From NCBI GenBank assembly GCA_043739185.1, contig JAYUEN010000506.1, positions 1 to 64,000 on the forward strand: 64,000 nucleotides of DNA, given 5' to 3'. The position numbers and the translations under genes were made by a program. This DNA is from Bdellovibrionales bacterium. GTDB taxonomy: Bacteria > Bdellovibrionota > Bdellovibrionia > Bdellovibrionales > JAMPXM01. The notes beneath the pieces were generated by a model that searched no databases, had not been told where the DNA came from, and saw only the letters and a program-made list of their open reading frames with translations. Shown here piece by piece: positions 1,379 through 22,920 of the stretch (the stretch's first letter is position 1; the number at the start of each line of letters is the position of its first letter).

Positions 1379-1945
1379 TTATTTTTTATCTTCAGACGAT
1401 GGCAATTTTTCTACCTTCGTTTTTCGGTAATCAATACACAAAGCATCTAATGCGCGGCCGACTCTGTGAAGGCAAGACTGGAGGTCTTTTTGAACCGTAC
1501 CAACGCAAGGCATGTTGCCTTGAAAAAATTCGTGGCTGTTTTCTTTTAAGGTATCGTAGATTTCAATGACTTTATCGCCCGTCTCTTTTTCGATTTTCAC
1601 GCTAGGGCAGGTTTTTACCTGCGATCCGCTGCGAAGGCTTGCAACCACTTCTGGTGAAGACATAACAGCTTCATGAAGCATTTCTTCAACTTTTGAACAA
1701 CTCACGCGATCTTCGATCGCATTTGAGCACATAGCATCTGCTAAAAGTCCAGTTCCTACTGCGAAAATTGCAGCTCCTCCAACGCGAGTCTTCCATTTCA
1801 CATCGAAATTAAGAACTGCTGCAGCGCCAGTGAACATACCTACCTGAGCAGCGAGACGCTCAGAAACACGTCCCGGTTCAGCGTGTGCACCGTGTGGAAC
1901 AAGGATTATAGTAGCAAGTAAAGCCAAAATAGATTTTTTGAACAT
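1379..1945 (-). CDS. Secreted six-cysteine protein, paralog of the C-terminal domain of 21946..22920
   Basis: GGAG RBS, signal peptide ending AHA, Gly/Ala hydrophobic hairpin, Cys pattern shared with 21946..22920. Confidence 0.85.
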   Translation of the reverse strand: MFKKSILALLATIILVPHGAHAEPGRVSERLAAQVGMFTGAAAVLNFDVKWKTRVGGAAIFAVGTGLLADAMCSNAIEDRVSCSKVEEMLHEAVMSSPEVVASLRSGSQVKTCPSVKIEKETGDKVIEIYDTLKENSHEFFQGNMPCVGTVQKDLQSCLHRVGRALDALCIDYRKTKVEKLPSSEDKK

Positions 1946-2242
1946 AAGGTTCTCCGTTTCATGGTTAATTAAACTTTCGAAGGGTGAGATTCAATTGTCG
2001 TACCAGGTTTTTAAAAGGGAAGAATGGATTTAATGCGTTTTGAGATCAGTCAGATGTGCCCGGGGCCCCAAATGGGAGCCTTACGTTTAGAAGTTCAACA
2101 CCTTCGAGGCCTACGCCGAATTTCTAAAAGTTTTTGAGAATATTAACCAGTTACGCATGTTCGAGCATCAGGGCTGTAACGGACTTTCTGCTCACTCTTG
2201 ACGAAAATGTTCCAGAAGAATTTACTTTAGAAAATATTCGCC

Positions 2243-2527
2243 TTAAGGAGTCCGCAGCTGACTCAAATCACTGTCGGTTGTCATATCGCCAATGGTGCTG
2301 CTGAGACTTCCCGTTGGATTTGCTGCTGGCGCAACTGTTAAACTAGCAACTTGGTAGCGATAACCAATTGCTCCGGGCAGAAAGGACTCCATGACTCCAG
2401 CAGTAGCCTTCAATTGGATATTTTGGCTCAAGAGCGTATCAAGGATTTCGACACGAATGGAGTACGAGTTTCCTGCGGCACTTGCCGGAATATTGCTAGT
2501 TCGCCTGAAAGTCGAACTTAAAACGAC
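2243..2527 (-). pseudogene. Possible 5'-truncated gene remnant (C-terminal part of a beta-rich protein)
   Basis: Open frame of ~94 codons directly after an in-frame TGA, no good start/RBS, protein-like composition (NSYSIRVEILD...YRYQVASLTV). Confidence 0.3.
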
Positions 2528-2744
2528 TCATTTTGAATCAAAAGTGATCACCTTTAAGATTAACTTAAATTATTTTAACATTAATCAATACAATATATAC
2601 CATTATTATTATTGATCTTTTTAATATTCAATCTATCTATAGTGATCACTAGCTGGATCATTTTAATGTTTTTTCAGAAAGAATTGTGAGAACATGAATT
2701 TGTAGGACGTTTATGAAACAAAAAACTTTAAAAAAGGGGATTTT

Positions 2745-3299
2745 ATGAAAACAACGCAACTTACTTCAATGGCAATCGCACTCTTACTAAGCCTTAATGT
2801 GAAGGCCCAAAGCCTGTCATCAGTGGGACCAATTTCAACGATTTCAGCCAAAGCTGCTCAACTTGAATTGGATTTTTTCACTCTCAACCTAGGCTCAATT
2901 ACTGATAAGTTCAACGACTACGCAAGTTCAAAAGTTTTGTTTGATGCAAAATCAATTGAAATTGATATTCAAAAACGCGCCCCCAAATGTGGTCCAAATA
3001 AAGTTTGTGTTGATATGGTCTTAGCACCAACAAGTATTAAGTTAAATGTAGTTGAAATTGTTAGACAGCCTTGCAGCGATGTCTATTATGCTTCCTCAGG
3101 CGCCGGCGGAGACATAAATTTGGTAGAGCAAATCAGACTTGAAGATTTCTCAGTGGGTCGCTGTGAGTACGCAGGCCTTCTTGCGCCAGAGAGCCAGCTC
3201 ACATATCGCGTACTAGAAAATGGCAATATCAATAAACCTGAGCGTGCCGCATATATTGATTTCTCAATGGATTCAATGTTGCCAACTTCCACTAAATAA
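2745..3299 (+). CDS. Secreted hypothetical protein
   Basis: AAGGGGG RBS, signal peptide ending VKA, 4 Cys. Confidence 0.85.
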   Translation: MKTTQLTSMAIALLLSLNVKAQSLSSVGPISTISAKAAQLELDFFTLNLGSITDKFNDYASSKVLFDAKSIEIDIQKRAPKCGPNKVCVDMVLAPTSIKLNVVEIVRQPCSDVYYASSGAGGDINLVEQIRLEDFSVGRCEYAGLLAPESQLTYRVLENGNINKPERAAYIDFSMDSMLPTSTK

Positions 3300-3340
3300 T
3301 TTTCAACTTAAGTTCAAATTCAGATCATACTAAAAATATA

Positions 3341-3400
3341 GGGAGATTCGGTTGTGAGGAGTCATTAGGGATTGAACCCTAAAACACAACTGAATCTCCC
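3341..3400. other. Long two-tier hairpin between convergent genes (terminator or small structured RNA)
   Basis: GGGAGATTCGGTTGTG pairs with CACAACTGAATCTCCC (16 bp, one G-U on +); inner TTAGGG/CCCTAA stem; AGGAG in the internal loop. Confidence 0.7.
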
Positions 3401-3423
3401 AAAAGTAATTTAAAATACCAAGG

Positions 3424-3915
3424 CTACTCTTGAATGGCAGGAGTCGAACTATGCTTTAGTATGAGCCATCCCTGCTCAGTTTTTTCATAAATAAAAGTAT
3501 AACGAGCACGAGTTGCAAGGCCATTAGCAAAACTAAATACATAATAGCCGGATTCGGTTGCATGATCGGTTCCTAAAAAATGAAAATAGCTTTCGTCTTC
3601 AAACTGAAGTTTCGGTCCCAAAGAAAGAAATTCAATAAAATACGCTCGAATCCGCTCTGGGCTTTCACGCACAACATTCGAACGAGTTGGCAGAAGCGTA
3701 GCATGGCTGCTATATTTGGCCACAACCGCATCCAAATCTAACCTCATTACTGAGTCGGCCCAGCCCATTTTTAGGCTATGAATTTGCTCTGCCACCGCTT
3801 GCAGGCCGTCTGCAAGAAAGAGCCTTCGACATGAGCCCGTTGCACCAAAGCTCATAGGTGTAAATAGACTCAACTGTGTGACAATTAAGGCTAAGATGAT
3901 TGCGCGGATACTCAT
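3424..3915 (-). CDS. Exported NTF2-like protein (SgcJ/EcaC / CaMKII association-domain family)
   Basis: Motifs ATLLPT.S...R....I..YF..FL, SGYYVF, ARYTFIY, WLI..HSS; signal peptide followed by SCRRLF. Confidence 0.8.
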   Translation of the reverse strand: MSIRAIILALIVTQLSLFTPMSFGATGSCRRLFLADGLQAVAEQIHSLKMGWADSVMRLDLDAVVAKYSSHATLLPTRSNVVRESPERIRAYFIEFLSLGPKLQFEDESYFHFLGTDHATESGYYVFSFANGLATRARYTFIYEKTEQGWLILKHSSTPAIQE

Positions 3916-4065
3916 ATTTAAAGCTCTCTCTAGGCAAAGCAAACGACCATTTTTATTTTAAAGCGATCTCCCAGTTATTAGTTTCAATATTGCGGCCAAC
4001 TTAGCTTTCTCGCAGATGGCAACCGAATTGCAACTATCTCGACCCTATAGACGTATCCTTAAAAT

Positions 4066-4971
4066 GTGCCAGAGGTCGACTTGAGAATTTTTGTCCTTTT
4101 ATTATTTTGCCTCTTCAATTCAGCGGCTCAGGCCCTCCCCAGCGGCTTTGAAAGGGTCTCAGGCTTTGAATCCTTTGCTCCTTTTCACGGCGGCCCGAAT
4201 TGCTTTAATCTTGCGCTCGTTTTAAACCATATTTTACCAAGTTTGCGTTTTTCATCCCCGGATGAAATCGGTTTTTATATTAATTCCCCTCTATGTCGCA
4301 AGCTCCAAGACGGTGAGCCAAGAAGATATGGAGACATCGGCCTAATCTATCTGAGCTCCAAAAAGCCAATTGAGGAATATCACGGCTTTATTTACATAAA
4401 TGAAAATTTGGCTTATTCAAAAAATGGCGATGGAATTTTCAAGCCAAGTTCGTATTTACTACAGAGCCTCGAAAATGTTTATAATACTTATGATGTGCCA
4501 CTCACTTCAGAATGCCGTCAGAATCAATTGAAAATTCCGAGTAGATGCGGGCAAGCCGCATCTTTTCACCGTTGCGAATCAATGCAAAATTATTTATCGC
4601 GAAAGCCAAAGCTATCTATGCCGATTCAAAAAATCAATAAGGCCGTATTAAATTTCGAGAAGGATCTCGAGTCATTCGCCATTTATGATAAGCAAATATC
4701 TTGGTCCGCGCAGAAATCTATCAAACATGCATCCAAAGAATTTAGTAAGTATTTGAAGAATTCTAGAAATGAAAAACTCCCACTTGATTGTCACGGACAA
4801 TTTATTTTAGGCGTTTTACAAATGCATTTTGAAGGAATTTCTGAGCAGCTGGCTTATTCAACTATATTTATAAATGACTATAAAATACTCTCTGACCAAC
4901 TCAAACAAACAGCGCAAGATGCTCAAATATTCATTCAAACTCACGTGGCCACTGGCACTTGCCAGGGCTAA
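4066..4971 (+). CDS. Secreted hypothetical protein, possible papain/NlpC-like Cys-His hydrolase
   Basis: Signal peptide ending AQA; GPNCFN, GDIGLI, YHGFIY, YSKNG motifs; start may be TTG 4081. Confidence 0.7.
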   Translation: MPEVDLRIFVLLLFCLFNSAAQALPSGFERVSGFESFAPFHGGPNCFNLALVLNHILPSLRFSSPDEIGFYINSPLCRKLQDGEPRRYGDIGLIYLSSKKPIEEYHGFIYINENLAYSKNGDGIFKPSSYLLQSLENVYNTYDVPLTSECRQNQLKIPSRCGQAASFHRCESMQNYLSRKPKLSMPIQKINKAVLNFEKDLESFAIYDKQISWSAQKSIKHASKEFSKYLKNSRNEKLPLDCHGQFILGVLQMHFEGISEQLAYSTIFINDYKILSDQLKQTAQDAQIFIQTHVATGTCQG

Positions 4972-4999
4972 AGTTTCGTATTTCATGCGAATAAACTGC

Positions 5000-5869
5000 T
5001 TACCTCTGAGCACCGCAAATCCGGGGGTCATTGATATCTTCGCTGACATCACAGCTTCCTGGAGTTCCAGTCAGCAGAAACCATGAGCCCGTGTTTTGGC
5101 AAAAGTATGAATACCCCGAGACATTCATGAGATCATAAAAAATAGATGATGCCGGAAGCGCGACATTTGTGCTGCTCACAACAATCGTATCGCCAGAATT
5201 TCCAGACGCATTTAGATTGACTAAAATTGTGCCCGTCGAAGTTGAGTGAAGCGTATCTCCGTAGCAATAGCGATGGATCCTGCAGCTCATCCCAACACTT
5301 GCGGGGTTACACATATAAGAAGCTGGTGTCGGCGTGGGTGTCGGAGTTGGCGTGGGTGTCGGCGTGGGCGTCGGAGTTGGCGTGGGTGTCGGAGTTGGCG
5401 TGGGCGTCGGAGTTGGCGTCGGAGTTGGCGTTGGGCTTCCGGCAATAGTTATATTGATAAGAGCGCCTGTGACAATTGCGTTTGTTGCGTCACTCACATA
5501 AACCGAGACCGCAGCGTTCGTACTAAAAACAATTGAACATGTATAGTTTAGTTGTGAAGAATTGATTTCGATATTATTGGGACAAGTAGAGACTCCGGTC
5601 GAGGTATAGCTAAAATTGTATTTATATGGAGCTTTACCGCCAGTAACCACTGCTACAAAGACTTGCGAAGACGTCGGATCTGAAGTTCCCGAAATGCGAT
5701 TCAATACCACAGAAAAATGAGATGGGGTTGGACTCGCAGTGCCTGTCGAATTCGATTGATTTGCTCCTACATTCCAAGCTGAATTTCCGTCTGACGACTG
5801 ACCACAGTTTTGAAATATGAAAAGGCTAGCCAACGAAAAAACCAGGACGCTTATTTTGATGTGTCTCAT
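5000..5869 (-). CDS. FQNC-type surface lipoprotein with Ig-like domain, Pro-Thr linker and Cys-rich C-terminal domain
   Basis: AAGGGAG RBS before ATG 5869; hydrophobic leader ending FIFQNCG; (PT)n tract. Confidence 0.85.
5325..5435 (-). repeat. Coding hexamer repeat encoding a (Pro-Thr)n linker
   Basis: Degenerate GGYGTN/GGAGTT hexamers inside CDS 5000..5869. Confidence 0.95.
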
Positions 5870-6099
5870 TATGACTCCCTTAGTGAATACCTGCAGCAAA
5901 AGTGAACTTTTAAGCTTCTACATGCTATACAAACTGCAATCAAATAGCCAAATAGATAGCTAACAAAAGACGTTCTTAGGAGCACGGAATGTTTAGATGT
6001 TGTGGACCTATCAAAAGAATGAACAGTTTCATCCCAAATGAATTTCGACGTCTCGAAATCAGACATTCCCGAAGTGGTGAGTCGCTCGCATTAATAGAT

Positions 6100-6969
6100 T
6101 TACCGACAGGCTAATATTGCAGGAACCCGTGTTTGAATAGCATTGGTCGCCGCAAGATGAAGCTTCGTATAGTAAGGCTGCCGAACCTGATAGAGATAAA
6201 CCGGATGATACAAATTTTTAAATCCCTCTAAAATATGATAATCTTTTTTCTCTGAGATTAAATGAAGAGGCACCACCGCTCGCCCAAAGCCTTCCGAAAC
6301 ACCATCTAATATTCCGTAAATATCACCCATAAAGGAACGCTTGAGAGAAAGATTTTTTTTGCCATTTAATTTGAAAAACTCGAAGGTCGTTTGATCTTCA
6401 CCATTATTATCTAAATAAACATCGGATACTGTGTTTTTCTTACTAGACTCAATCAGAACATACTCTTCTTTGCCTAAGGAGATCTCCTCTAAATTTGCTG
6501 CATTGATACGGCTATCTATGACCACAAAATCGACCTGAGCACTTGAAATCAAGCGTGGCAGCTCGGAGGCTTCGCGAATTGAAATTTCAATTCGAATATT
6601 AGGATGCTTTCGCACGAGTTCGCTGATGGCAGGGATAATTGTTGCACGCATCAGGCTTGACACCCCTCCTATACGAAGAGTGCCGGCCAAACTTTCTCGT
6701 GCATTTTTTTCAGGTCGAAGCCCTTGTAAAAACTCTTCTTCAGCTTGGGTTTGTACTCTGCAAAATTGCAATAGACCTGCCCCACGCTCCGTTAGTCGAA
6801 CTCCGTTTCCGGACCGAACAAAGAGAGAGGTTTCAAGATCCATTTCTAAATTACGGATACGATGGGAAAGTGCAGATTGGGTCAGATTCAATTGTAGCGC
6901 GGCCTTGGTAAAGCTTGAGTGACGGGCTACTTCTTGAAAGGCTTCGAGTTGAATTTGTGATAGCTTCAT
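6100..6969 (-). CDS. LysR family transcriptional regulator
   Basis: SFTKAA..LNLTQSALSHRIRNLE...LFVR HTH; GTLRIG substrate-binding domain. Confidence 0.95.
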   Translation of the reverse strand: MKLSQIQLEAFQEVARHSSFTKAALQLNLTQSALSHRIRNLEMDLETSLFVRSGNGVRLTERGAGLLQFCRVQTQAEEEFLQGLRPEKNARESLAGTLRIGGVSSLMRATIIPAISELVRKHPNIRIEISIREASELPRLISSAQVDFVVIDSRINAANLEEISLGKEEYVLIESSKKNTVSDVYLDNNGEDQTTFEFFKLNGKKNLSLKRSFMGDIYGILDGVSEGFGRAVVPLHLISEKKDYHILEGFKNLYHPVYLYQVRQPYYTKLHLAATNAIQTRVPAILACR

Positions 6970-6994
6970 AGATATGAATTTAATTCATATCTAT
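6968..6994. promoter_or_regulatory. LysR-type operator (perfect palindrome with T-N11-A core)
   Basis: ATAGATATGAAT-TTA-ATTCATATCTAT overlapping the LysR start, between divergent genes. Confidence 0.75.
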
Positions 6995-7072
6995 ATTAAA
7001 TCAATGAATTTGATGTTGGAGCCTAAATCAGCGATAACTCGCTCGGACAATAATTTATCAAAGGAGCTCATT

Positions 7073-7468
7073 ATGAAGTTTAAAGTTTTATTAGCCGTTT
7101 TATTAGTAAGTGCCACGGCAACGGCCGATATGAATTGTCAAAATCACCCTGCGCCTGGAGGTGAATATTTTGTGGTCCAAGTTAAGGGTGAGCAATATCA
7201 TATCACCCACTATGGACATAGTCGAAATTCATATGAGGCAATCTACAAAGCCCAAAACTGCTTACCTACAAGATACGGTGGGTTTTGCCATCTTACTAAG
7301 ACTAAAGATCTTTCAACCTGGAAAAATATGCCCATTCAACTCGAGGTATCAAGATATGTCGACTACAGCGGAGAAAGTCTTTCAATAGTTGTTTCTGGTT
7401 TTACTGATTTAGCCGTGCCCTCGGTCTCATTTGCCAATTCGGATTGCAAAATAACAAATGGCTTTTAG
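7073..7468 (+). CDS. Small secreted protein divergent from LysR
   Basis: AAGGAG RBS, MKFKVLLAVLLVSATATA signal, 4 Cys. Confidence 0.85.
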   Translation: MKFKVLLAVLLVSATATADMNCQNHPAPGGEYFVVQVKGEQYHITHYGHSRNSYEAIYKAQNCLPTRYGGFCHLTKTKDLSTWKNMPIQLEVSRYVDYSGESLSIVVSGFTDLAVPSVSFANSDCKITNGF

Positions 7469-7488
7469 GCTACAAACAAAAGCTTTTC

Positions 7489-7875
7489 TCAACAGAGTTT
7501 AATCTCGTAATGATGATCTTTTACGCTGTCCTCTACGGTAATGGTATCTCCTTGCGCAACTTTTAAGAGTTGCTCTTGTGAAAGTATGACTTGATGTTGA
7601 TGCAAATATGCAATGCTAGTCATTATCTTCACTCCTTGAGTCGGAGGATTTTTAAAAATGGCTGTTTCAATATTGAGGTAGTGAAAGTGCCCTGGCAAGG
7701 GCGCATAGGCCGAGGGACCCGAGAGAATATTCAATTCGGCCCCACAATTGAATTCTGGTGAATTCATTTGTGCACTAGCCTTTTTCAATAAAACTGGTAT
7801 CACTTGCAGTGTAACTACGCTGACACCAAGAGTTTTCAAAAATTGACGTCTTTTCAAATTCATATCTTTTTTCAT
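7489..7875 (-). CDS. Tat-exported His-motif protein (possible metal binding)
   Basis: AAGGAG RBS before ATG 7875; KRRQFLK twin-arginine signal ending ASA; GHFH, HQH and HH motifs. Confidence 0.8.
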   Translation of the reverse strand: MKKDMNLKRRQFLKTLGVSVVTLQVIPVLLKKASAQMNSPEFNCGAELNILSGPSAYAPLPGHFHYLNIETAIFKNPPTQGVKIMTSIAYLHQHQVILSQEQLLKVAQGDTITVEDSVKDHHYEIKLC

Positions 7876-7988
7876 TTTGAGCTCCTTTAGATGTTTCATT
7901 TCACTCCGCCGAGTGTATAAATAAAGGTACTTATTTGCCAATAAATTAATAAAAGTTCCTTATTTGGGTACTTTTTTAAGGAGTTCGG

Positions 7989-8747
7989 ATGCCATTAAAT
8001 CAAAATCAAGATTTCAAAGCCATAACCGGAGTCATGAAAAACATTTTGCGCGAACGCAAAATCACCTATCGCAAATTGGGCGCGCAAATTGGTCTCACTG
8101 AATCCGGAATCAAAAAGATTTTTGCAGCTGAAGATGGCTCCTACAAGCGCCTGACTCAAATTGCAAATATTTTAGGTGTTAATCTCCTTGAGGTCTTGGG
8201 CGAGATTCAACAGGCAAGCCTTGAAAATGTGCGCTTCACTCAATCACAACAAAATCACTTTCTAAAGGATCCCCTCTTGTTTTCGCTCTATTTCAAATTG
8301 GTAATTGAGCGCATTTCGGCTGAAGAGGCGAAGCATGAGTTGGAGTTCAACGACCACAATTTTTTTAAATATTTAAAAATGCTAGATGATCTGAATCTGA
8401 TTCAGCTTTTAGCACAAAATAAAATTAAAATTCCCAATCTGAAAATGGTAAAAAGCTTCGGCGATGGTCCCTTCCTTTCAAAACTATACCGCGATTGGGG
8501 ACGCGAACTGGTAACTGAATTGGCAGATCCAAAACACCAAAGCTCTGGTCAATTTATCGTGCGTTGTTTGAAAATGAAGCCAGCAACCTATCTTGAATTT
8601 CTAACAAGGCTGCGCGAGCTAGATGACGAATTTACAAGACGCGGAATTCAAGAAATGCGCATCAATCTGAAAAATCTAAAAAGTATGCGTTGGATCTCAA
8701 TAACCGACCAGAATAGCTTTGTACGAGGTAAAAAAGCTGGATCTTAA
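7989..8747 (+). CDS. XRE/Cro HTH transcriptional regulator with C-terminal domain
   Basis: ITYRKLGAQIGLTESGIKKIF HTH; GGAG RBS. Confidence 0.88.
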   Translation: MPLNQNQDFKAITGVMKNILRERKITYRKLGAQIGLTESGIKKIFAAEDGSYKRLTQIANILGVNLLEVLGEIQQASLENVRFTQSQQNHFLKDPLLFSLYFKLVIERISAEEAKHELEFNDHNFFKYLKMLDDLNLIQLLAQNKIKIPNLKMVKSFGDGPFLSKLYRDWGRELVTELADPKHQSSGQFIVRCLKMKPATYLEFLTRLRELDDEFTRRGIQEMRINLKNLKSMRWISITDQNSFVRGKKAGS

Positions 8748-8910
8748 ATCAAGGCACCCGCATCGCTAGTAATACTTGAGTTTCACGAAGGGCTTTTTGT
8801 TACCCACATGTCTTTGCCGCGTAATTGAGTAAGCGAGCAAAGCCGCAATCCAACTAGCAGCCATTAATTCGGCTATTGAAATAGTCAGTCGAGGCAGCCG
8901 CTCTAGTTAC

Positions 8911-9882
8911 TTATGGTGCGAACTGACCATCCATTTTGGCTGAGCCATTTTGCTTAGTCGAGCCATTTGTATAGATTAAATCCCCGCTAAAACGCGGATT
9001 GCTCCCAAAGTTATTTCGCTCTAAAACAAACGCGTAAACTCCACCTGTCGCTTTGCCATTTAATATTTCTGGTACCTTAAACTTGAGTGCCCGACTCTTA
9101 TGGCTATAAGAAACATCAAAGATTTGCCCATCTTTAAAGGCGGCGCCATCATAAGTCGTTGCGCCTTCAACATTAGATTGATAGTTTTTGGCATCGCCAA
9201 AGCCATCCAAGCGAAGTTCGACTTTGTCTCCGCCAGAATCTTGAGTCAAGATGATCGAAGACCCATTTGGATTTTTAAAGCTCTTATAATTTGTTTGAAT
9301 GCCTGTCTTTTGGTATTCAGGATCAATTCGATAAAGAATTTTGGCAGTGAGCTCTAAGCCCGATGACATGAGTTTATCCAAGCTTGCTTTTAAACTTACT
9401 TTCGAGTCAGTGAAATCTCGACAAGCGGTATAAGACTTTTTCAATTCCTCAGTTGGCGCCTGCTCTACGCTTGAGTAGACCCAATTTTGAACGGTATCAC
9501 TATTGAGTTGAACATCGTCACAGCTTGCCATTCCTGAGGGCGGCGCAGATGAACAAGCTTGTTCGAAGTTTTTAAAGCAAGGAGCGTAGTCGAAACCATT
9601 TGCATTGAGCGCATCCAACTGGCCTTGAGTCTTTTGTCTTTGCAGCTCAAGTTGGTCTGATTTGGCAGCATTGGTAGCAACTTCGCTAAATAGTTTAACA
9701 GCTTCTGCTGATGATTTAGTTTCAGGCCACAAAAATATAGAGACACTTGTTAGCGATATTTTGCCGTACTCGGCACCAAGACTTTGTACATTGGTGAAGT
9801 CTGGTGGCGTACTGACGATTCGATCGTTTTGAACCGAACACGCACTTGCTAAAATGGCTAAACTCACAATTTTGTATTTCAT
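8911..9882 (-). CDS. Lipoprotein of unknown function
   Basis: LASAC lipobox; GAGG RBS; coiled-coil segments with 4 Cys. Confidence 0.85.
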   Translation of the reverse strand: MKYKIVSLAILASACSVQNDRIVSTPPDFTNVQSLGAEYGKISLTSVSIFLWPETKSSAEAVKLFSEVATNAAKSDQLELQRQKTQGQLDALNANGFDYAPCFKNFEQACSSAPPSGMASCDDVQLNSDTVQNWVYSSVEQAPTEELKKSYTACRDFTDSKVSLKASLDKLMSSGLELTAKILYRIDPEYQKTGIQTNYKSFKNPNGSSIILTQDSGGDKVELRLDGFGDAKNYQSNVEGATTYDGAAFKDGQIFDVSYSHKSRALKFKVPEILNGKATGGVYAFVLERNNFGSNPRFSGDLIYTNGSTKQNGSAKMDGQFAP

Positions 9883-9922
9883 AAAACCTCAATCAATCAA
9901 ATTTTAATTCAAAAATCGAAAA

Positions 9923-12132: not shown

Positions 12133-12286
12133 AAATCCTCCGTTAAATATTTTGATATTTACAAAATCTTGAATTGGAAGATTGATTCTATCAAAATACG
12201 GCGCGGAGTTCCACGGCGAAGCCTTGCTCTAAAAATTATTCCAGAGCTGGTGACAAGTTTTGACCCTTATTTTTTCGAGGCCACAA

Positions 12287-14537: not shown

Positions 14538-14649
14538 ATATTAAAAACCAATTTTGCAAATTATCTTGTTATTTGTTCTATGAGGGCTGTGCGATAAATG
14601 TGCCAAACTCGGGGAGAATTTTAAGCGGCTTAGCAATGAACTTTGAGTC

Positions 14650-14838
14650 AATTGAGTGACCAAAATGGCTCTTGAATCGCGGGATTTGTTTCGCGGAAAC
14701 CAATCAGTGAATCCAATCAGTGAATCAAATCAGTTTTCGCGGCAGCTGCGGCGGTACTCAGTTTAACTGTTTCAGTCTTGGGGTACTGAATCCGCTGCCG
14801 TTAACCGATTCCGGATTGTCGGCCCCTGAGATTTTTCA
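14650..14838 (-). repeat. Dispersed structured intergenic repeat, copy A (includes a 13-bp tandem triplication at 14700-14734)
   Basis: Aligns by eye to 22949..23116 (about 38/51 identity in the first block; shared GCTGCCG..AAAACTGA and CC.TTTTGGTCACTC). Confidence 0.7.
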
Positions 14839-14870
14839 TATTTAATCGATTGAAGCTAACAAAAAGCACT

Positions 14871-15551
14871 TTAACGGGCGGAGATCAGCCAAATCCTAAG
14901 GCTTTCTGGATCATTTAATTGACTGACCATGAGGCGAGTTGAACCCTTTGCTTTTGGATCCGGGTCCGGAATGGCTCTACAATTCAATTTGATATTGGTT
15001 ACTCCCCAAGATATTTCGCAAACCAAAGTTATATTAGCTAAGGCTTTTGGCAATTCTTTATTGAGTCGCATTCCGCCGCTTGAAATATCAATGGTGTGAC
15101 ATTCGAAAATAATGTGCGCTGCTTTGATGACAACTCTATAGTTTCTTGCGAGCCGTGGGCCCCGTCTCTTGATTTCAAATTCTTCACTGTCGGATGTGCT
15201 TTTTGAACGCGAAAGATTCTCACCATCCATTTCAAAACTCGGAGTGCTATTTATACTTGAACTATCAGACCTAAATTTTCTGGGTTCAGACTTTTTTACC
15301 TTCGCAGTATTTTTAATCGCTTCGAGTATAGCTGTTTCTTCAGAAAAGTTGGCGACCTTTAAATCTTTGAGTTCGGCAAACTTTGTAACTGATTGCCATT
15401 TGGTTTGCCCTTCATGCCAAGCCTTCCATTGTGCCAATTGCTCAGGAAACAAACCCGAAAGTGTCGACTTCACTTCGGCCAGGTCTAGACCATCAAGCTG
15501 TGTATTCGTATGCCTATTGAAAAGGCTCCACTTGGGATTTTCTTTTTTCAT
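14871..15551 (-). CDS. PilZ domain protein (c-di-GMP receptor) with GYF_2-like N-terminus
   Basis: RRGPR (RxxxR) and DISSGG (DxSxxG); W.AWHEG..W N-terminal motif. Confidence 0.88.
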   Translation of the reverse strand: MKKENPKWSLFNRHTNTQLDGLDLAEVKSTLSGLFPEQLAQWKAWHEGQTKWQSVTKFAELKDLKVANFSEETAILEAIKNTAKVKKSEPRKFRSDSSSINSTPSFEMDGENLSRSKSTSDSEEFEIKRRGPRLARNYRVVIKAAHIIFECHTIDISSGGMRLNKELPKALANITLVCEISWGVTNIKLNCRAIPDPDPKAKGSTRLMVSQLNDPESLRIWLISAR

Positions 15552-15741
15552 CGTATCATCCAAATTCCTAACGAGAATGTTTCAATTTGAAACGCTCATC
15601 TTAAAATATTCTCTTTATATTTTAGAATTGTTGTCGAAAAGTGTCTACAAAATTTTACAAAGTTTGAGCGCTAAACATGCCAAGAAATTGGTTTAATTTA
15701 GTTGTATCGAAATGGGTCTGAGAGCTTGTTTCTAGATTCAA

Positions 15742-17400
15742 TCAATGCGTTTGGCTAGCAAAGTCGAAAAATATTTTTTTCAACCATCTCGGAAAGTTCG
15801 CTCCAATTTGATAATCGGGTAAATCGGAGGCTGCAAATTGCCAACCGAAGATCATCACCCCTTCAAATTGGGCATTGGCAATATCAAACTGACCTCTAAT
15901 AAAGTTGGCAAAAGCATTGTTAACTGCAAGTCCCGGATTGATCGAAACCTCTGAGTCGCTTGGGTACCAGCTCGCATGAGCAAATCCTTGCATCACCAGC
16001 CAGCGCTCGATGCCGGGGTTTGCCTTTCTTGCAAAGATCGCAGAGTTCGTGGTGATATTATTTAAATTATCTAGAGAAAAGGCTCCGCTGTTGCTCATAT
16101 CAAAAGTATAGGGGTCAACGGCCATCCAGCTAATTCGCGCCATGAGTGCCGCCGTACAATCTGTTAGTTTCTGATACTTGTTATTTACATTTGCTTCTGA
16201 CAATACTGAAAGATAAGCATAGGGTGAAAATACAATCCCCAGCTTGGCTTTTGGAAACACACTTTGAACTAAACTTACAATTGCGTGCGCGTCCGTACAG
16301 GCGGTATCTATTTGTGCCTCGGTGCCTACGCCTGATCCATCCGTTCGCCAGAACACCTCATCTAGAATCCAAATTCTCCTACTAAGTGTTGATAAAAGCG
16401 GGCGTTTGGCTTTTTCAGAAGCTAAAATTTGTGCGGCGTCTGGTTTCAGTGCTTTATTTAAGGTGAAGTCGCCAGGGACCATAATAAGCGATCGTCCTGC
16501 GCCTTCAATCGATGCCTCATCAGCAGTATTCATTGCTATAGAAACTGAAGTGGGAAAGTCCGCAGTATTTAGATTTGCTGCCGCAGGCAACAATTCGCCT
16601 ATGAGTCGATCTGCAACATTTTGATTACTAGGTGCTGGCGTTGGCGTTGGTGTAGGCGTCGGCGTTGGCGTTGGCGTTGGTGTAGGCGTCGGCGTTGGCG
16701 TCGGTGTCGGCGTTGGCGTCGGTGTTGGCGTCGGTGTTGGCGTCGGTGTTGGTCCTATTTGAGAAACGATAGTCCATTGAAAAGCATAAGTTAAGGAATT
16801 AAGCCCTGCTCGGTCTCTCGCTCGTACCGAAACTCGGTGAGTTCCGAGGCTCAAACCGCTAAAGTTTTGATTGCTGCTACAAATATTTTCAAGAGTTTGA
16901 TCTAACTGACAAAGGAAGGCTGATATTCCGCTTCCGGCATCTAGCCCCGATATTTTCAAATTAATTTGTGTCAATTGAGTTTGCGCGCCAACATCTGGCA
17001 CTACATTTAGAGTAGGCGGAGTTTTATCCAACATAAAAACAAAAGTCTTTTGCAGGATGCTTGAAACGGTCTTAATTTGGAGAACAATTTGATGTGGACC
17101 ATCAGACAGACCATTGATGCGAAATGGACTTTGGCAAGCCTTGAACGCAGCCTGATCTTGGCTACAAGAAATCTCATTGATGATAGCAGGATTCTTAGAA
17201 ATAACCGTGAAGCTAATATCATTTTGAGTGGTAAAGTCTTGCGGAGGATTATCAACTCTCAAAGTTACTTCTGAGTTTGAAACTACAATGCTGCTAGAGT
17301 TTGTCATTGAATTATTTAGAGCTTCAAATCCGCTGCTACATCCAAAGAGAAAAAAGCAAACGACTGAAGGTAAAGTGATTTTAAATTTGTTACTTTTCAT
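15742..17400 (-). CDS. Lipoprotein with two Ig-like domains, Pro-Thr linker and glycoside-hydrolase-like TIM-barrel C-terminus
   Basis: FLFGC lipobox; DKTPP and VRARDRAG Ig motifs; ILDEVF, WMAVDPY, WLVMQGF, GVMIFGW. Confidence 0.75.
   Translation of the reverse strand: MKSNKFKITLPSVVCFFLFGCSSGFEALNNSMTNSSSIVVSNSEVTLRVDNPPQDFTTQNDISFTVISKNPAIINEISCSQDQAAFKACQSPFRINGLSDGPHQIVLQIKTVSSILQKTFVFMLDKTPPTLNVVPDVGAQTQLTQINLKISGLDAGSGISAFLCQLDQTLENICSSNQNFSGLSLGTHRVSVRARDRAGLNSLTYAFQWTIVSQIGPTPTPTPTPTPTPTPTPTPTPTPTPTPTPTPTPTPTPTPAPSNQNVADRLIGELLPAAANLNTADFPTSVSIAMNTADEASIEGAGRSLIMVPGDFTLNKALKPDAAQILASEKAKRPLLSTLSRRIWILDEVFWRTDGSGVGTEAQIDTACTDAHAIVSLVQSVFPKAKLGIVFSPYAYLSVLSEANVNNKYQKLTDCTAALMARISWMAVDPYTFDMSNSGAFSLDNLNNITTNSAIFARKANPGIERWLVMQGFAHASWYPSDSEVSINPGLAVNNAFANFIRGQFDIANAQFEGVMIFGWQFAASDLPDYQIGANFPRWLKKIFFDFASQTH
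16637..16753 (-). repeat. Coding hexamer repeat encoding a (Pro-Thr)n linker
   Basis: GGYGTN hexamers inside CDS 15742..17400. Confidence 0.95.
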
Positions 17401-17792
17401 TTTCGAGGCTCTCTATGTTCATCTCTAAGTGTTCATATTTTTTCTGCTTAAACTGATCATAACAATTGCGCCAAAAAACCCAGATTGGATTCGAAACGGG
17501 TATCAAATTAGGGCAACAAAAGCTGACATTTTACCAAGAGTTAGACACCTAGATTTTTACACTGAATCTGACGCGCCTCTGCGTATCACAGTGATACTTC
17601 TCTAACCAAAATAGCAGCTATAACAAAATCTTTTGTTCATCTTAGGTTTTTGATCTTTTGCTCCAAATGCAGGCGACTTTTGCACAAATTGAAAGGCACT
17701 GTCACAAATTCTGTTGTCAAAGTTCGCAAAGCTAGACTAGCTTTTGGTCGTGTTTAAATGGAATTAAAATACACTTTCAAGGGGGATCTCAA

Positions 17793-18740
17793 ATGTTTTT
17801 AAAGAAAGCGCTACTCATAGCCTTAGTGACAATGGCTTCGACTGGATTCGTAAAGAGTACAGAACAAGGCATGCCGATAAATAAATTTGTTAAAGCCGAT
17901 GGACCTCACTGCAATTTCTTTCCAAGAAATAATATGAGGTTTTCAGTTAGCTTTGACGGCAACCAAATGACTGAGACCGACTTCAACAGCATTTTAGATT
18001 TGGTCGCCAATGTTTATACTCCAATTTTTAATCAGTATGGGTTTGGACTATTCCAAATCGAAAGACGTTGGACAGATGATACTGTTAACGCATTTGCAGA
18101 TATCGGCAATGCCACTGATCCTAAAACTGGTAAAACTGTACCAGCTCGATTCATTCATATGTTTGGGGGCTTAGCTCGTCACCCTCTTATGACAAAAGAG
18201 GGTTTCTTGCTTGTTGCCTGTCATGAAATCGGTCACCACCTTGGTGGATACCCAAGATACGGCGATCAAACTTGGGCCTCTGATGAAGGTGAATCTGACT
18301 ATTACTCAACTTCAAAATGTGCGCGTTTTGTTTTAGGAAAACTTCCTTCAACTCCGGGCTGGCAACAAGTTCACTTTAATGAAGTCGATCCTACGGTTAG
18401 TGCACAGTGCAATCAAAGCTGGCCAGGAAATTTGGTTCAATCAACAATGTGTATGAGATCTTCTGTTGCAGGCTTGAGCCTGGGTCGCGTTTTGGGTTCA
18501 CTTGAAGGCAATGCAAATGTTAATTTCAATACCCCCGACAAATCAGTTGTAACTCAAACTTATGACGGTCATCCAAAAGCTCAATGTCGACTTGATACTT
18601 ATTTTCAAGCGGCACTTTGCCAGAAATCTGAAACTGAGCGCATGGGTTCAGGCCCAGGACAGGGTGCTTGCGAAGCTCCAGCACGTGGCGCGCGCCCAGC
18701 CTGCTGGTACAAAGCCACCGCCGGAATTGCAAGACGCTAG
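17793..18740 (+). CDS. Secreted zinc metallopeptidase (HEXXH, M48-like)
   Basis: TVNAFA, MFGGLARH, ACHEIGHHLGG, EGESDY; Cys-rich C-terminus; GGGGG RBS. Confidence 0.88.
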   Translation: MFLKKALLIALVTMASTGFVKSTEQGMPINKFVKADGPHCNFFPRNNMRFSVSFDGNQMTETDFNSILDLVANVYTPIFNQYGFGLFQIERRWTDDTVNAFADIGNATDPKTGKTVPARFIHMFGGLARHPLMTKEGFLLVACHEIGHHLGGYPRYGDQTWASDEGESDYYSTSKCARFVLGKLPSTPGWQQVHFNEVDPTVSAQCNQSWPGNLVQSTMCMRSSVAGLSLGRVLGSLEGNANVNFNTPDKSVVTQTYDGHPKAQCRLDTYFQAALCQKSETERMGSGPGQGACEAPARGARPACWYKATAGIARR

Positions 18741-18763
18741 TAAAAATTTCTTATTGAGATTCC

Positions 18764-18794
18764 AAAAAAGCGGCGTTCACGCCGCTTTTTTTTT
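18764..18794. terminator. Bidirectional intrinsic terminator
   Basis: AAAAAAGCGGCG-TTCA-CGCCGCTTTTTTTTT between convergent genes. Confidence 0.92.
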
Positions 18795-18805
18795 AAGATA
18801 AGCCT

Positions 18806-19618
18806 TCAACGCTGTACCACTTTTAACAACTCAACTTCTGCCTCACTCAGTCGATTCTCATTCTTGAAGATTGCAAGAATGCGATAGCTATAGATTTGGG
18901 TAAAACTTAAAATATTTTTAAGCCCGCCCAGAGGAAGAAAATCTGGCACCAAACAGCTCCCGCCAACAGACTCGGCTAGCTTTTGGGCAATAGACCAACT
19001 CTCAATTTCAATTTGCGAGTCGTAAGACTTTTTTCTCTTACTCAACATTTTCAGCAAAACATGGGTTTCTGGTCGCGCTTCACTTGTAATCAGTGGTTCA
19101 ATAAATTGGCCGCGTTTTGAGCGCAGCACGAATTGCCCGTCCGCAATTTGCTTAAAATCCAATCCAAAGGTCGCTTCATCGTCAACAATGAAGCCCAAGT
19201 TTACTGTTCCTTCTGAAACCAGTTGCCGAACTTTTGAAGTGATTCCGATTCGAATTTGTGTCTGTTTTAAATTATTTTGTTTTTTAAACGCTGGAATAAT
19301 TAGGGCCTCTGCCAGCGCACCCGAACAAGCGATTTTAAGTCGACCTTCAATTCGAGAGTCGACTTTCACTGAGTTTTGAAATGACTCGACACCAATTTTA
19401 GCTCTTTGATAAAACCGCCGGCCCTCAGGAGTCAGCATCAATTCATTTTTAGAATGTGAAATGACGTCAAATCCAATAATCTCTTCAATTCGGCGAATGG
19501 CCTGACTAATGGCCGAACGTGAAATGTGATTTTTCTCGGCAGCTAGAGTTAAACTATTTAACTCGATGCTATCGATAAAATATTTAAGTGCATTGAGATT
19601 TAGATCAGCCCAATTCAT
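18806..19618 (-). CDS. LysR family transcriptional regulator
   Basis: SLTLAAEKNHISRSAISQAIRRIE HTH; LTPEG, GRLKIA. Confidence 0.92.
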   Translation of the reverse strand: MNWADLNLNALKYFIDSIELNSLTLAAEKNHISRSAISQAIRRIEEIIGFDVISHSKNELMLTPEGRRFYQRAKIGVESFQNSVKVDSRIEGRLKIACSGALAEALIIPAFKKQNNLKQTQIRIGITSKVRQLVSEGTVNLGFIVDDEATFGLDFKQIADGQFVLRSKRGQFIEPLITSEARPETHVLLKMLSKRKKSYDSQIEIESWSIAQKLAESVGGSCLVPDFLPLGGLKNILSFTQIYSYRILAIFKNENRLSEAEVELLKVVQR

Positions 19619-19706
19619 GATTAGTAAAACTTACCACTTACTTAATTATTAGTCACTTTTAATTATCCACAATTTAGTTTACACCTGCTCAAACAAAGGA
19701 GAATTT

Positions 19707-20114
19707 ATGAAGCTTACTACTTTACTTATTGGACTTTTCCTGGCTGATGCCGCTCAGGCGCAGAGATTCTATTGCCAGAGTGATTCGGATTGTGGGACCT
19801 GGGCGCACTGCTACCAAGGCGGCCAATGCATCGAGGACGAACAAAATGGCTTTATCGGCGCCAATTCTCTGCCGCTAAACAAGAATGATTTAATTCGAAA
19901 GTGTATTACCTCAGCCAAAAACTATGCCGATAAAAATCATAGCCTTTGGAATTCAAGCGCACATTATGGGGGCGTTCTTTACAACTCCTGTTATGTCCGC
20001 GTAACGAAGCTTAGGCCAGGGACGAACTCATGTAGTTACAAATACAATGTCGATATGAGTTCGTGGTCGGTTCGATATATTGAGGACATCGGATGCGGCG
20101 ATAACCATTATTAA
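19707..20114 (+). CDS. Small secreted cysteine-rich protein divergent from LysR
   Basis: AAGGAG RBS, signal ending AQA, CQSDSDC...C...C module plus 4 more Cys. Confidence 0.85.
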   Translation: MKLTTLLIGLFLADAAQAQRFYCQSDSDCGTWAHCYQGGQCIEDEQNGFIGANSLPLNKNDLIRKCITSAKNYADKNHSLWNSSAHYGGVLYNSCYVRVTKLRPGTNSCSYKYNVDMSSWSVRYIEDIGCGDNHY

Positions 20115-20141
20115 AATCCACAAAGAGCGGCAGCGGACTGA

Positions 20142-20516
20142 TTATACAAGTTCGTGCCTCGCCGCACGATAATGTAAAATGTAGCGATACCAAGCTCCTT
20201 CAGGCATCAAGGGCTCAACGTGAACTTTCTGTTGCCCCCGACCATTTGAACTGTCACTGCCCCATTGACTTGGATCAAGTGAATTCCACGTTACTGTCCA
20301 GTAAATTGAGTCTGCACCTTGGCGAGTAAAGCTGAGAGAGTACGGCGGATAAGTATCTCCGTTTTCAGGTGAATGCGCTTGTAAGACGAGCATCGAATCA
20401 TCGTTGCTATCAGGTGAGTCTGGCATGGATCCGCCTACTTTTCTCATCACGGCTGCGGCTTCCCATACGTCTATTCCTGGTGGCCTTGGTTCGCTTCCGA
20501 GTCCGCAAAAATGGCC
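20142..20516 (-). pseudogene. Possible fragment of a polysaccharide-lyase/lectin-like beta-sandwich gene
   Basis: Frame opens after a TGA with no signal or RBS; LVLQAH and GAWYRYILHY resemble jelly-roll lyase motifs; looks more GC-rich than neighbours. Confidence 0.35.
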
Positions 20517-20648
20517 TCATCGTAAAAACCCTAAACAAGGGAGTCACGTATAGAATCATAGGGGTCGAGCTAAGTGACTAGCTTTACTTGTTTAAATCCT
20601 TGTTTGCTAAATTGAAAGGGCGGTGCGAACTTTGCTTAAATAAGCTTG

Positions 20649-21854
20649 ATGAATTTTATGCTGGTGCTCCTTTCTATTTTGATTTCTCTCAGCAGTCACG
20701 CGGCACTGGTTGATTTTACCCAAACTGGTGATGACGTCGATTATTTTCGTCGAATCAAGCAACTAGCGCCGGGCGACGAAATTGCATTTTTCTCCGAAGG
20801 AAAATTAAGAATTATTGGCTTAGAAAAGGAGCTTGGCGTGGGCCAGGGTTTTGGTTCAAGGGTCTTTAGCATCAAAGGATCAAACGAAAAACAAATCGTC
20901 AAGATTTCAAAAACTCCCACCCCTCCAACGCCGAACTTCTCACTCATTGCTGAAGCCAGGTCTTTAGAGGCTCATAGGGCAATGGGAATTTTAGCTCCGC
21001 AAGTAGATCTCATTTCAGATCAACAACAGATTTTGGTTAAAGCCTTTGCTCCGGGTGAGCTTGGCACCCGACTCGTTGAAGAAATTGAAAATATGCCCGC
21101 TACTGAAACTCTAAATAGACTTCTGGCTCTTGAAACCTTATTTTCAATTTATGAAGAAAATCTTATTTATCCCACTGACCTTACGCCAAGTAATTTCACC
21201 TTTGTTGAAGACGGCAATCGCGTCGAGGTGTTTGACCCAGGGCCGCTCGCGCGGCGCTCATGGCAAGAGGGAATATCTTATCGCAAGGCTTTGGTTCACT
21301 TTCGCTTCACAGCAATGTCTTTATGGGCCGCAATCTTATATTTTAAATCGATCGATACCGATGTCGACAATCATAAACTCAAATTGCGTATGCAAAATTT
21401 GTTAAGTGAAATGGGTGGTTTTGATACGGCTCATTTTGCAAAGCTCCTTTATTTTGAAAATGACAAAGAGCACCTGCCACTTCGAAAGGCTATCCTAAAA
21501 TCAATGAACTATTTTTCAAAAGAATTTAAATATTTTGAGGGGCCTCAAAGTATTAACTCCGGAGATCTTGAATCTCTCAAAGCTGAACTTGTTAAACGGC
21601 TTTTAGCAACCCAAACTCCAGTGGAGTTTTTAAATTTAAAAAATCGCATCATTAAGTTGAAATTTCCCAATGCAAATGAGATTTTGAATTTAAATTCGGT
21701 ACTTGCGCACTTTTCCAAACTCAATCCAAATAGAGCTGAACAGTTTTTAGGTCGCTTTGAAATGGCTTCGAAGTTCTTAGTGGGCGTAAGAAATATGTTT
21801 TCATTCCCTTCAAATGCTAGTAGTTCGTCTAGCTGTATCGCCTTATTTAATTGA
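20649..21854 (+). CDS. Secreted protein-kinase-like protein with C-terminal CxxLF motif
   Basis: Signal ending SHA; GQGFGSRV loop, IVKISK, alphaC Glu, DLTPSN, FDPG; ends SSSSCIALFN. Confidence 0.75.
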   Translation: MNFMLVLLSILISLSSHAALVDFTQTGDDVDYFRRIKQLAPGDEIAFFSEGKLRIIGLEKELGVGQGFGSRVFSIKGSNEKQIVKISKTPTPPTPNFSLIAEARSLEAHRAMGILAPQVDLISDQQQILVKAFAPGELGTRLVEEIENMPATETLNRLLALETLFSIYEENLIYPTDLTPSNFTFVEDGNRVEVFDPGPLARRSWQEGISYRKALVHFRFTAMSLWAAILYFKSIDTDVDNHKLKLRMQNLLSEMGGFDTAHFAKLLYFENDKEHLPLRKAILKSMNYFSKEFKYFEGPQSINSGDLESLKAELVKRLLATQTPVEFLNLKNRIIKLKFPNANEILNLNSVLAHFSKLNPNRAEQFLGRFEMASKFLVGVRNMFSFPSNASSSSSCIALFN

Positions 21855-21945
21855 TTCTCTACTCGCTCTACGGCCAAATATTTATGAATTTTTGAATAGC
21901 TCCCCATTGTGTAATATCATGAATTCATCTTTACGTAGGATTCAT

Positions 21946-22920
21946 ATGTTTATAAAATTTTTATGTTTTGCATTTTCATTTTTAGTTCCGCTTGTCTGCG
22001 TTGCAGGACAAATTCAAAGCCCGAACGAAAATCTCTCTCGCTATATTAAATCTTATCAGTCGCAGAGCACCCTTCACGGATTTATGGCTGAATTGAAAAA
22101 AATGAGTACTCCTGAATCCTTTGCCCATTTGCAGAAATATGTGGCGGCCTACGACAATGCGAAACTAATCAAAGTCCAATTTGACGGCAATTCAACTGTG
22201 AGCTTCGAAATTAACGGTCAAAAAAATCAAATTAAATTTGCTTCAATAGATGACAGCAAAATAAGCGTTAACGGTAAAAACTTAAGCTTTTCAAGTCATC
22301 AGACCTTCGAAGAACGATGGAACAATCTTCTTAAACTTTTAGAAACAAAAACAGAAGATCGCAATGCTCTTCTAGAAATGATAATCCCCTCTGCGAATGC
22401 CGAGGAAGCCCCTGCGGCCAATATTGCTGGCCCTCCTATTTCGGTTACCGGTGCTGCGATGCTAACTGACTTTGAGAAAGCGTGGAAAATTAAAAAAACC
22501 ATCGTGCCTTTGGGCATTTTTGCTTTAGGCGAAAATTTTATAAATGATGGCGTTTGCAAGTCTATGCAAGACGACCTCCCCGAATGCTTCAAGTTAGAGG
22601 AAGACATTGTATTATTGCTATCTGCTTTCCCTGAGAGAGAAATGGCTAGTAAAAAGGATTTAGAAGTTCCTCATTGTGCACAAGGAAACGAAAGGCCCCT
22701 TATTGACAAAGACGCAACCGAAAATTTCTCTAAGTCTTTTCGCGGCCTCGCAAATCGCGACCAAGAGCTCTCTCAAAGAGTTTCAAGCTGTGAAGGAAGT
22801 CTAAAAGGCGATCTCAATGAATGCCTTTCGAGTATCGGAACAGCATTAAAGTATCTGTGTGTTGATCTCGAAAAGAAGAATATCAAAAGTCTGACAAGAA
22901 TTCCCGCAAGTACAAAGTGA
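21946..22920 (+). CDS. Secreted two-part protein: N-terminal leader domain, internal IIPSANA site, six-Cys domain
   Basis: AGGA RBS before ATG 21946; signal peptide; C-terminal domain homologous to 1379..1945. Confidence 0.85.
   Translation: MFIKFLCFAFSFLVPLVCVAGQIQSPNENLSRYIKSYQSQSTLHGFMAELKKMSTPESFAHLQKYVAAYDNAKLIKVQFDGNSTVSFEINGQKNQIKFASIDDSKISVNGKNLSFSSHQTFEERWNNLLKLLETKTEDRNALLEMIIPSANAEEAPAANIAGPPISVTGAAMLTDFEKAWKIKKTIVPLGIFALGENFINDGVCKSMQDDLPECFKLEEDIVLLLSAFPEREMASKKDLEVPHCAQGNERPLIDKDATENFSKSFRGLANRDQELSQRVSSCEGSLKGDLNECLSSIGTALKYLCVDLEKKNIKSLTRIPASTK

Follow-up and report, generated by a model that had tools for sequence, protein, structure and literature searches.

A widespread leader domain with an internal signal-peptidase-type site precedes exchangeable cargos in Bdellovibrionota

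The stretch of DNA analyzed here (the window) comprises 64,000 nucleotides of contig JAYUEN010000506.1 from the assembly GCA_043739185.1 of a Bdellovibrionales bacterium. It raises the question of why an exported protein should carry, behind its own signal peptide and an additional domain, a second stretch resembling a signal peptidase cleavage site. The protein in question, P0001, is the product of the long gene and has 324 residues counted from the ATG at 21946, or 368 if translation starts at the alternative upstream ATG at 21814 in the same open frame. A shorter copy encoded on the minus strand, P0002, called and translated as an open reading frame (ORF) of 188 residues, has no such additional domain. 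Neither protein has a match over the cut-off in Pfam or NCBIfam. The two share 41 of 149 aligned residues (28%; BLASTP E 1e-17), and each is the sole significant phmmer match of the other among the 19,281 six-frame ORFs of the genome, where the next hit has an E value of at least 0.72. Six cysteines are aligned (204/214/244/282/293/305 in the long protein and 73/83/113/147/158/170 in the short one), with spacings of 10-30-38-11-12 and 10-30-34-11-12, respectively. On this sequence comparison, the two genes are paralogs. A preliminary description had aligned the mature short protein with residues ~153-324 of the long one, and both of the sequence matches it quoted lie inside our alignment. It was also right to read a normal signal peptide on the short copy, where inspection finds a signal-like N terminus ending in IILVPHGAHA, and a separate signal, an extra domain, and a second signal-like C-region on the long copy, which correspond to a signal, a folded leader of ~115 residues, and the site LLEMIIPSANA. 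The coordinates it gave for that site (22381-22401) span IIPSANA only; the full motif lies at 22369-22401.

Our analysis places the long gene in a family that combines a conserved leader, predicted to fold independently, with a peptidase-type site and exchangeable cargos bearing hydrophobic starts and disulfide-type cysteines. As far as sequences can tell, this is a real, unannotated, phylum-wide module with a predicted processing step. Leader profiles were built to stop before the motif, so that recovery of the motif is an independent result. A first profile of nine seeds, searched in the order, matched 56/301 genomes, and a second of 67 rows, searched in the phylum, matched 127/401 Bdellovibrionota genomes from the order of the window and four families outside it. 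Up to six leader matches per genome were found with the motif-free profile, and a motif-bearing profile gave nine in one genome. Named members are proteins of Bdellovibrio, Pseudobdellovibrio exovorus, and Halobacteriovorax marinus annotated as hypothetical or "putative exported." Word-based protein searches recovered few relatives (1, 11, and 8 proteins), and the range was thus assessed within Bdellovibrionota. The 151 leaders analyzed were drawn from part of the listed matches, leaving out a false match (L071), two repeat-protein artefacts, five ORFs with tails of <45 residues, and near-duplicates. A hydrophobic signal-like stretch precedes the leader in 120/140 cases.

AlphaFold2 models the P0001 leader alone with a predicted local distance difference test score (pLDDT) of 90.6 and a predicted template modelling (TM) score of 0.74, as three helices, five strands, and a helix; the leader is thus predicted to fold independently. 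A leader-cargo complex prediction scored 0.02. No match over the cut-off was obtained for the leader in Pfam or NCBIfam, and searches of Atlas features, phages, and solved sequences gave none either, a designed protein (E 0.003) coming closest among the solved sequences. Foldseek returned nothing at E 0.001 from PDB and BFVD, and a wide structural search reached no Z of 5, its best match being Ttg2D (Z 4.8, root mean square deviation [rmsd] 4.4, 107 aligned residues). Comparison with known folds (MlaC/NTF2-like, copper amine oxidase N-domain) gave Atlas TM scores of <0.4 on a poor model. Elsewhere in the genome of the window, two divergent family members (C316:4857-5696, plus strand, E 1.5e-6; C461:1939-2865, minus strand, a weak match) have a site at residue 157 of the frame followed by a hydrophobic helix. 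Leaders with almost no cargo and without the site also occur (L156:1407-1889 and L044:391-1101, both plus strand), the one in L156 head to head with a full member.

A loose finder located an internal site within 45 residues of the leader in 120/151 cases, compared to an average of 58/151 in shuffles. A weight matrix trained on 60 early matches and tested on 75 held-out leaders gave scores of at least 6 in 52/75, versus 2.5% when sequences were shuffled and 1.3% in 4,158 windows from the genome, and of at least 12 in 42/75, versus 0.15% and 0.1%; nine of the held-out misses belong to a long subtype with the site further downstream. LLEMIIPSANA of P0001, which belonged to the training set, has the best motif score among the ORFs of the genome. 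The site profile shows hydrophobic residues at -11, -8, -7, and -6, His/Tyr/Glu/Gln at -2, and a helix breaker in the expected -4 to -6 interval, namely Pro at -5 in 64%. When the site was located blindly from positions -11 to -5 alone, which was possible for 45 of the 75 held-out leaders, position -1 turned out to be Ala in 38 and Gly in 3 (41/45), and position -3 Ala in 35, Val in 4, Ser in 2, and Thr in 1 (42/45). Pro at +1 occurs in 0/120 sites. In alignment A4, built from motif-bearing rows, A130 and A132 are the sole near-invariant columns, and no other feature is conserved as well as the motif in this family, whose members share an identity of about 15-20%. In the full-length P0001 model, the linker and the site lie outside the folded domains (pLDDT <50).

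Type I signal peptidases show tolerance at -3 and bar Pro at +1. The -1/-3 asymmetry and the lack of Pro at +1 are the rules of this peptidase, and the internal site is probably a true type I signal peptidase site that is cut by such an enzyme. The (-3,-1) rule for these sites has been described (PMC8844934). Held-out motif scores and blind placement rule out a chance fusion of two secreted genes: the preliminary description had named such a plain fusion as its refuting case, and what we find is a motif conserved behind homologous leaders whose cargos are unrelated. Its prediction that leader homologs would keep a hydrophobic-P-x-A-x-A boundary before variable cargos agrees with the held-out scores. 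Class III (pilin) signals, which have Gly at -1 and Glu at +5 and are cut on the cytoplasmic side, were considered and rejected, given Ala at -1 and Leu/Ala/Gly/Val at +5.

Beyond the leader family, the second-site motif is not enriched in the other exported proteins of the genome (8/498 versus 33/2,359, p 0.68; this set relied on heuristic signal calls, which missed P0001), and a simple regular expression of the motif occurs genome-wide at chance level (29 versus 15-32 in shuffles). Several individual proteins are worth recording. Paralogous lipoproteins (C100:4127-5143 and 6014-7000, minus strand, in L075) have a similar internal site ~55-60 residues past the lipobox, followed by an 8-Cys domain; they lack leader homology, and chance could account for them, given that the motif is not enriched genome-wide. 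A 723-residue exported protein (C105:10927-13095, minus strand) has a strong motif at residue 224 that is followed by hydrophobic segments rich in Gly and by 11 Cys, and its unrelated N-terminal domain is possibly a second leader type. An HEFVH metalloprotease-like motif occurs in two exported paralogs (C155:89954-91879 and C211:9810-11795, both plus strand), each of which carries a strong site motif near residue 460. YajC in C38 (L175:1414-1758) has a signal-like start ending in A-x-A right before its membrane helix, an arrangement resembling site plus helix.

Homologous leaders precede unrelated cargos, as anticipated when the leader was first described as a possible reusable module: 119 cargo sequences fall into 85 BLAST clusters, with cargo relationships resting on this clustering and on alignment A4. 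A hydrophobic segment (19-residue hydropathy of at least 1.6) starts no more than 8 residues from the site in 56/117 cargos, compared to 5/263 ordinary signal-peptide proteins of the genome of the window; at a lower bar 83/117 have such a segment, and the rest do not. Hydrophobic cargo starts contain 30% Gly+Ala, versus 14% in ordinary signal-peptide proteins. The four tandem copies in G037 are 93% identical as far as the site; identity then drops to 19.5% across 45 columns and recovers to 65.5% beyond them. The number of Cys is even in 94/103 complete Cys-bearing cargos, versus 145/204 signal-peptide proteins and 500/1,021 other ORFs. Two of 99 cargos contain an SLT lytic transglycosylase domain, the other 97 having no Pfam match over the cut-off; in these two (L120 and L122), leader, site, and a strong hydrophobic helix are followed by the transglycosylase with its catalytic Glu motif and 14 Cys. 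Both the even-Cys bias and the transglycosylase cargos point to a cargo located outside the cytoplasm. A subfamily (L034, L047, L052, L053, and L138) has Gly-rich, nearly Cys-free helical cargos, two of them without a clear A-x-A.

The P0001 cargo is modeled as a long three-helix bundle with low-confidence hydrophobic segments. Its structural matches are generic helical bundles (best Z 9.9, rmsd 2.3, 81 aligned residues), and Foldseek against PDB gave no specific match. Saposin-like proteins, which are six-Cys membrane proteins, serve as the comparison class. This cargo clusters solely with the short paralog, P0004, and L021. Since P0004 and L021 bear the leader and P0004 is as close to the short paralog (32%) as it is to the long one, leader loss is the simpler history, and the short paralog would be a copy without its former leader, judging from these four sequences and the ortholog in L002.

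These features can be assembled into a two-cut pathway. The first signal peptide would direct Sec export. The folded leader would then front the hydrophobic segment and, with folded domains on both sides, one-sided membrane insertion would be blocked. A type I signal peptidase, most simply that of the predator, may cut after the internal A-x-A and free the hydrophobic Gly/Ala-rich N terminus, which, acting from the periplasmic or outer side, could insert in a membrane or bind a target and display the disulfide-bonded cargo there. The short leaderless copy would reach an equivalent N terminus by a single cut of its ordinary signal peptide. Taken whole, as a two-cut export module of Bdellovibrionota in which the predator's own enzyme does the processing and the cargo lies outside the cytoplasm, this account has in our judgment about an even chance of being correct. 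The two-stage export proposed in the preliminary description, a leader/cargo scheme with a second A-x-A cut possibly made at a prey membrane, is partly supported: the site fits the type I rule, but no consistent immunity-like neighbor was seen and the predator peptidases are catalytically intact.

Several observations weigh against the two-cut pathway. The loose finder missed 31/151 leaders while also calling sites in 58/151 shuffles; of the missed leaders, 11 are of the long type, whose site comes later, many show Val/Ser at -3 on inspection, and about seven have no clear site. No membrane-spanning h-region was found upstream of the site (median uncharged run 4; insertion score 9.9 on a rough scale), and therefore the internal site is not a classical signal peptide. 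The pre-site segment is not extra amphipathic either: its hydrophobic moment (0.266, from 120 segments in a single window, -15 to -6) is no higher than that of shuffles (0.280 ± 0.011), and an amphipathic helix before the site is not supported by this measure. With neither feature, the access of the site to the peptidase is unexplained. The Gly/Ala-rich hydrophobic start noted earlier on the cargos of the window is present but weak for the family, the best 19-residue Kyte-Doolittle mean of the long copy being 1.19. In 20 cargos, a helix is sufficiently hydrophobic to halt Sec translocation, yet 11 of these 20 carry at least four Cys behind it, an arrangement that simple stop-transfer leaves unaccounted for. 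Finally, if the target were the predator inner membrane, a plain signal anchor would suffice and the leader would seem needless.

A distant member of the family in a model predator belongs to the long subtype, which has a ~70-residue insertion ahead of the site. Profile-profile comparison relates long-type and short-type leaders with a probability of 94-96% (E 1e-7 to 4e-9, 102 columns), and the long subtype is single-copy in 44/44 genomes of the genus Bdellovibrio. Among the loci of this type (L179-L197), the site is kept after the insertion in 19/19, and all 19 proteins end in GGVR, GGTR, or SGVR. One member, Q6MLF3/WP_231839118.1, is Bd2058 of Bdellovibrio bacteriovorus (PMC12546842, PMC12034629); its predicted internal site ends in EAQA. 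No Bd2058 ortholog was found in the genome of the window (best E 0.03). Bd2058 resembles P0001 in its homologous leader, internal site, Cys-rich cargo, and small/basic C-terminal tail, but differs in the pre-site insertion, in an unrelated cargo without a hydrophobic helix at its start, and in a C-terminal transmembrane-like helix. We regard it as a distant relative with a different cargo, not an ortholog of the window gene.

Bd2058 bears on a reading in which prey, not predator, performs the second cut: the precursor would exit uncut, the prey signal peptidase would cleave it at the prey inner membrane, and the freed N terminus would insert there. This would give the masking leader a purpose, and it fits the transglycosylase cargos and the hypervariable segment that begins exactly at +1 in the tandem G037 array. 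In Bd2058, attack-phase induction of 41-fold is tabulated together with mini transposon sequencing (Tn-seq) fitness values of 0.0002-0.003 in all four conditions (PMC6561027), and protein abundance peaks in attack phase (PMC12546842). However, a strong A-x-A in a flexible linker would encounter the predator peptidases first, and the leaderless paralog would generate the same N terminus in the predator's own periplasm. By inspection, no consistent small downstream (immunity-like) gene is present in 96 loci, nor does an immunity-type gene lie between the four tandem G037 copies. Bd2058 itself looks more like a surface or envelope protein, with its C-terminal helix and an abundance sustained all cycle (8.7 to 8.0 log2, attack phase highest, 31 peptides; PMC12546842), and its full-library Tn-seq fitness, borderline overall, was 0.145 on planktonic prey and 1.05 on biofilm prey (PMC6561027). 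Within the sections of that study available to us, Bd2058 is not among the named complemented strains, and its follow-up assays are given as "ND"; polar effects on bd2057 may contribute to the fitness values. Its level falls to ~0.55-fold upon prey entry and in host-independent growth (PMC2797640). Overall, we consider prey activation unlikely. Its generalization, in which a phylum-wide set of masked membrane effectors is carried past the predator membrane by the leader, activated by the prey signal peptidase, and sorted by a C-terminal tail signal, with Bd2058 as a core predation member, is improbable to a similar degree. If it held, the activating cut would be made by an enzyme that is essential to the prey and not easily lost, and a variable N terminus with a disulfide cargo would be planted in the prey envelope.

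The tail just mentioned is a family trait. Members end in a Gly/Ser/Thr-rich small-residue tail with a basic residue or Gln in last position (Lys/Arg/Gln in 63% of members versus 30%). The tail pattern, which was picked after a few tails had been seen, occurs in 46/146 members versus 16/358, and in 11/61 of a later-fetched set. It is a possible sorting or tail-protease signal.

Its hint of a separate sorting system suits the idea that the internal motif is never cut and is instead recognized for binding or sorting by a chaperone or an export machine of the outer membrane, or survives as a relic of the cargo's old signal peptide after fusion. The missing h-region and amphipathic signal, as well as a few clades without a clear site (P0014, P0020, L047, L138, and L150), also agree with an uncut motif. 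Yet a relic would decay, and this motif is what the family conserves best; its residue preferences at -1, -3, and +1 are, moreover, those of a peptidase substrate. We rate an uncut motif as quite unlikely.

About as unlikely is a biogenesis aid laid out as in pestivirus Erns/E1 (PMC3937272), in which the helix after the site would be a stop-transfer anchor in the predator inner membrane, the leader a translocation handle that is removed, and the cargo cytoplasmic. This layout suits short cargos that lack Cys and have basic residues following a strong helix (15/118 complete cargos are Cys-free, and the mean net charge behind the 20 strongest helices is +1.75). The even-Cys bias and the transglycosylases, however, require the periplasm, and the paralog without a leader is simply exported. 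Doubtful for the family, such an anchor is probably true for a subset at most.

Cleavage by another protease or a dedicated signal peptidase paralog is very unlikely: although the genome of the window has three tandem signal peptidase I genes (lepB; C116:31332-33650, L176-L178) directly after lepA, each with intact Ser and Lys catalytic motifs, and most genomes of the order have 2-5 matches, a dedicated paralog is not required, as family f16 has a single match in 8/13 leader-bearing genomes and family f18 has 2-3 matches, yet leaders in 0/29.

Table 1. Coordinates of the paralogous genes in the window and of their predicted parts
Feature	Position	Strand	Evidence
Short leaderless paralog P0002	1379..1945	-	188 aa; ortholog and same neighbor in L002
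Short paralog, N-terminal Sec-type signal peptide, residues 1-22, ending in AHA (IILVPHGAHA)	1880..1945	-	Inspection of sequence
Short paralog, six-Cys cargo	1382..1879	-	28% to long cargo, E 1e-17; Cys spacing
Long gene P0001: signal, leader, internal site, cargo	21946..22920	+	P0004 and L021 built alike
Long gene, first signal peptide, residues 1-20, ending in V-x-A	21946..22005	+	Sequence
Long gene, leader core, residues 21-135: three helices, five-strand meander, helix	22006..22350	+	AlphaFold2, profile matches
Long gene, internal signal-peptidase-I-like site LLEMIIPSANA, predicted cut after Ala152	22369..22401	+	Family motif statistics
Long gene, cargo: Gly/Ala-rich segments, six-Cys three-helix bundle, small-residue/basic tail	22402..22917	+	Model, tail statistics

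Among the neighbors of the two genes, a 405-residue exported protein without a Pfam match (159-1376, plus strand) lies tail to tail with the short paralog, a pair kept in L002. Directly upstream of the long gene, a signal-peptide protein (20646-21854, plus strand) shows kinase-like motifs by eye and no Pfam match over the cut-off. Downstream, an overlapping pair (23246-27938, plus strand) encodes a 434-residue beta-barrel-like protein and a 1,133-residue lipoprotein-like protein, neither with a Pfam match over the cut-off. Two lipoprotein-like genes with long Pro-Thr repeats occupy 5000-5899 and 15742-17400 on the minus strand.

By what route proteins of predatory Bdellovibrionota arrive at or in prey envelopes is largely an open question, secretion having been called "largely unexplored" (PMC12622784). 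No description of the leader family or its internal site was found in searches of the open-access literature, in which "Bd2058" turned up in no main text. The family is now linked to this core Bdellovibrio gene, which a predation screen scored as required and listed as hypothetical with "No signal sequence" (PMC6561027). For each protein of this unannotated domain family, one new N terminus is predicted. Should the cut be real, signal peptidase I of bacteria would serve phylum-wide to mature proteins behind a folded domain that has been exported, and the leader would mark a large set of new envelope-active cargo candidates.

Polymorphic toxins (LXG, MIX, and the like) join a conserved N-terminal trafficking domain to a variable C-terminal cargo and form tandem paralog arrays. 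The leader family is alike in its conserved N-terminal module, its variable cargos, and its tandem arrays; it differs in having a Sec signal and a second peptidase-type site, in the 97/99 cargos outside Pfam, and in the lack of a consistent immunity gene. Class I viral fusion peptides and the pro-forms of pore-formers are activated for membrane insertion by cleavage, and a cut here would similarly expose a Gly/Ala-rich hydrophobic N terminus before a helical bundle; with no sequence or specific fold similarity found, this likeness is pure analogy. The Bacillus anti-sigma factor RsiV is cut by signal peptidase at its site 1, which is not part of an ordinary N-terminal signal peptide (PMC8844934). 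Our family would share with it a bacterial type I enzyme and a maskable site outside an ordinary signal peptide, but RsiV has an upstream transmembrane tether and the cut starts its destruction (PMC8844934), whereas in the leader family a folded, exported domain precedes the site and the cut would mature the cargo. Because neither an amphipathic helix signal nor an immunity gene is found, the family is, by these comparisons, a member neither of the Erns/E1-RsiV type nor of the polymorphic toxins. Pestivirus Erns/E1, like the family described here, has its internal von Heijne-type site on the exported side; no transmembrane helix precedes the site, and the hydrophobic segment of the next unit follows it (PMC3937272). 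That site, however, lies in a eukaryotic viral polyprotein, behind a long amphipathic helix that is unsupported in the leader family, and releases fixed products (PMC3937272), whereas the Bdellovibrionota module would combine a reusable leader with exchangeable cargos.

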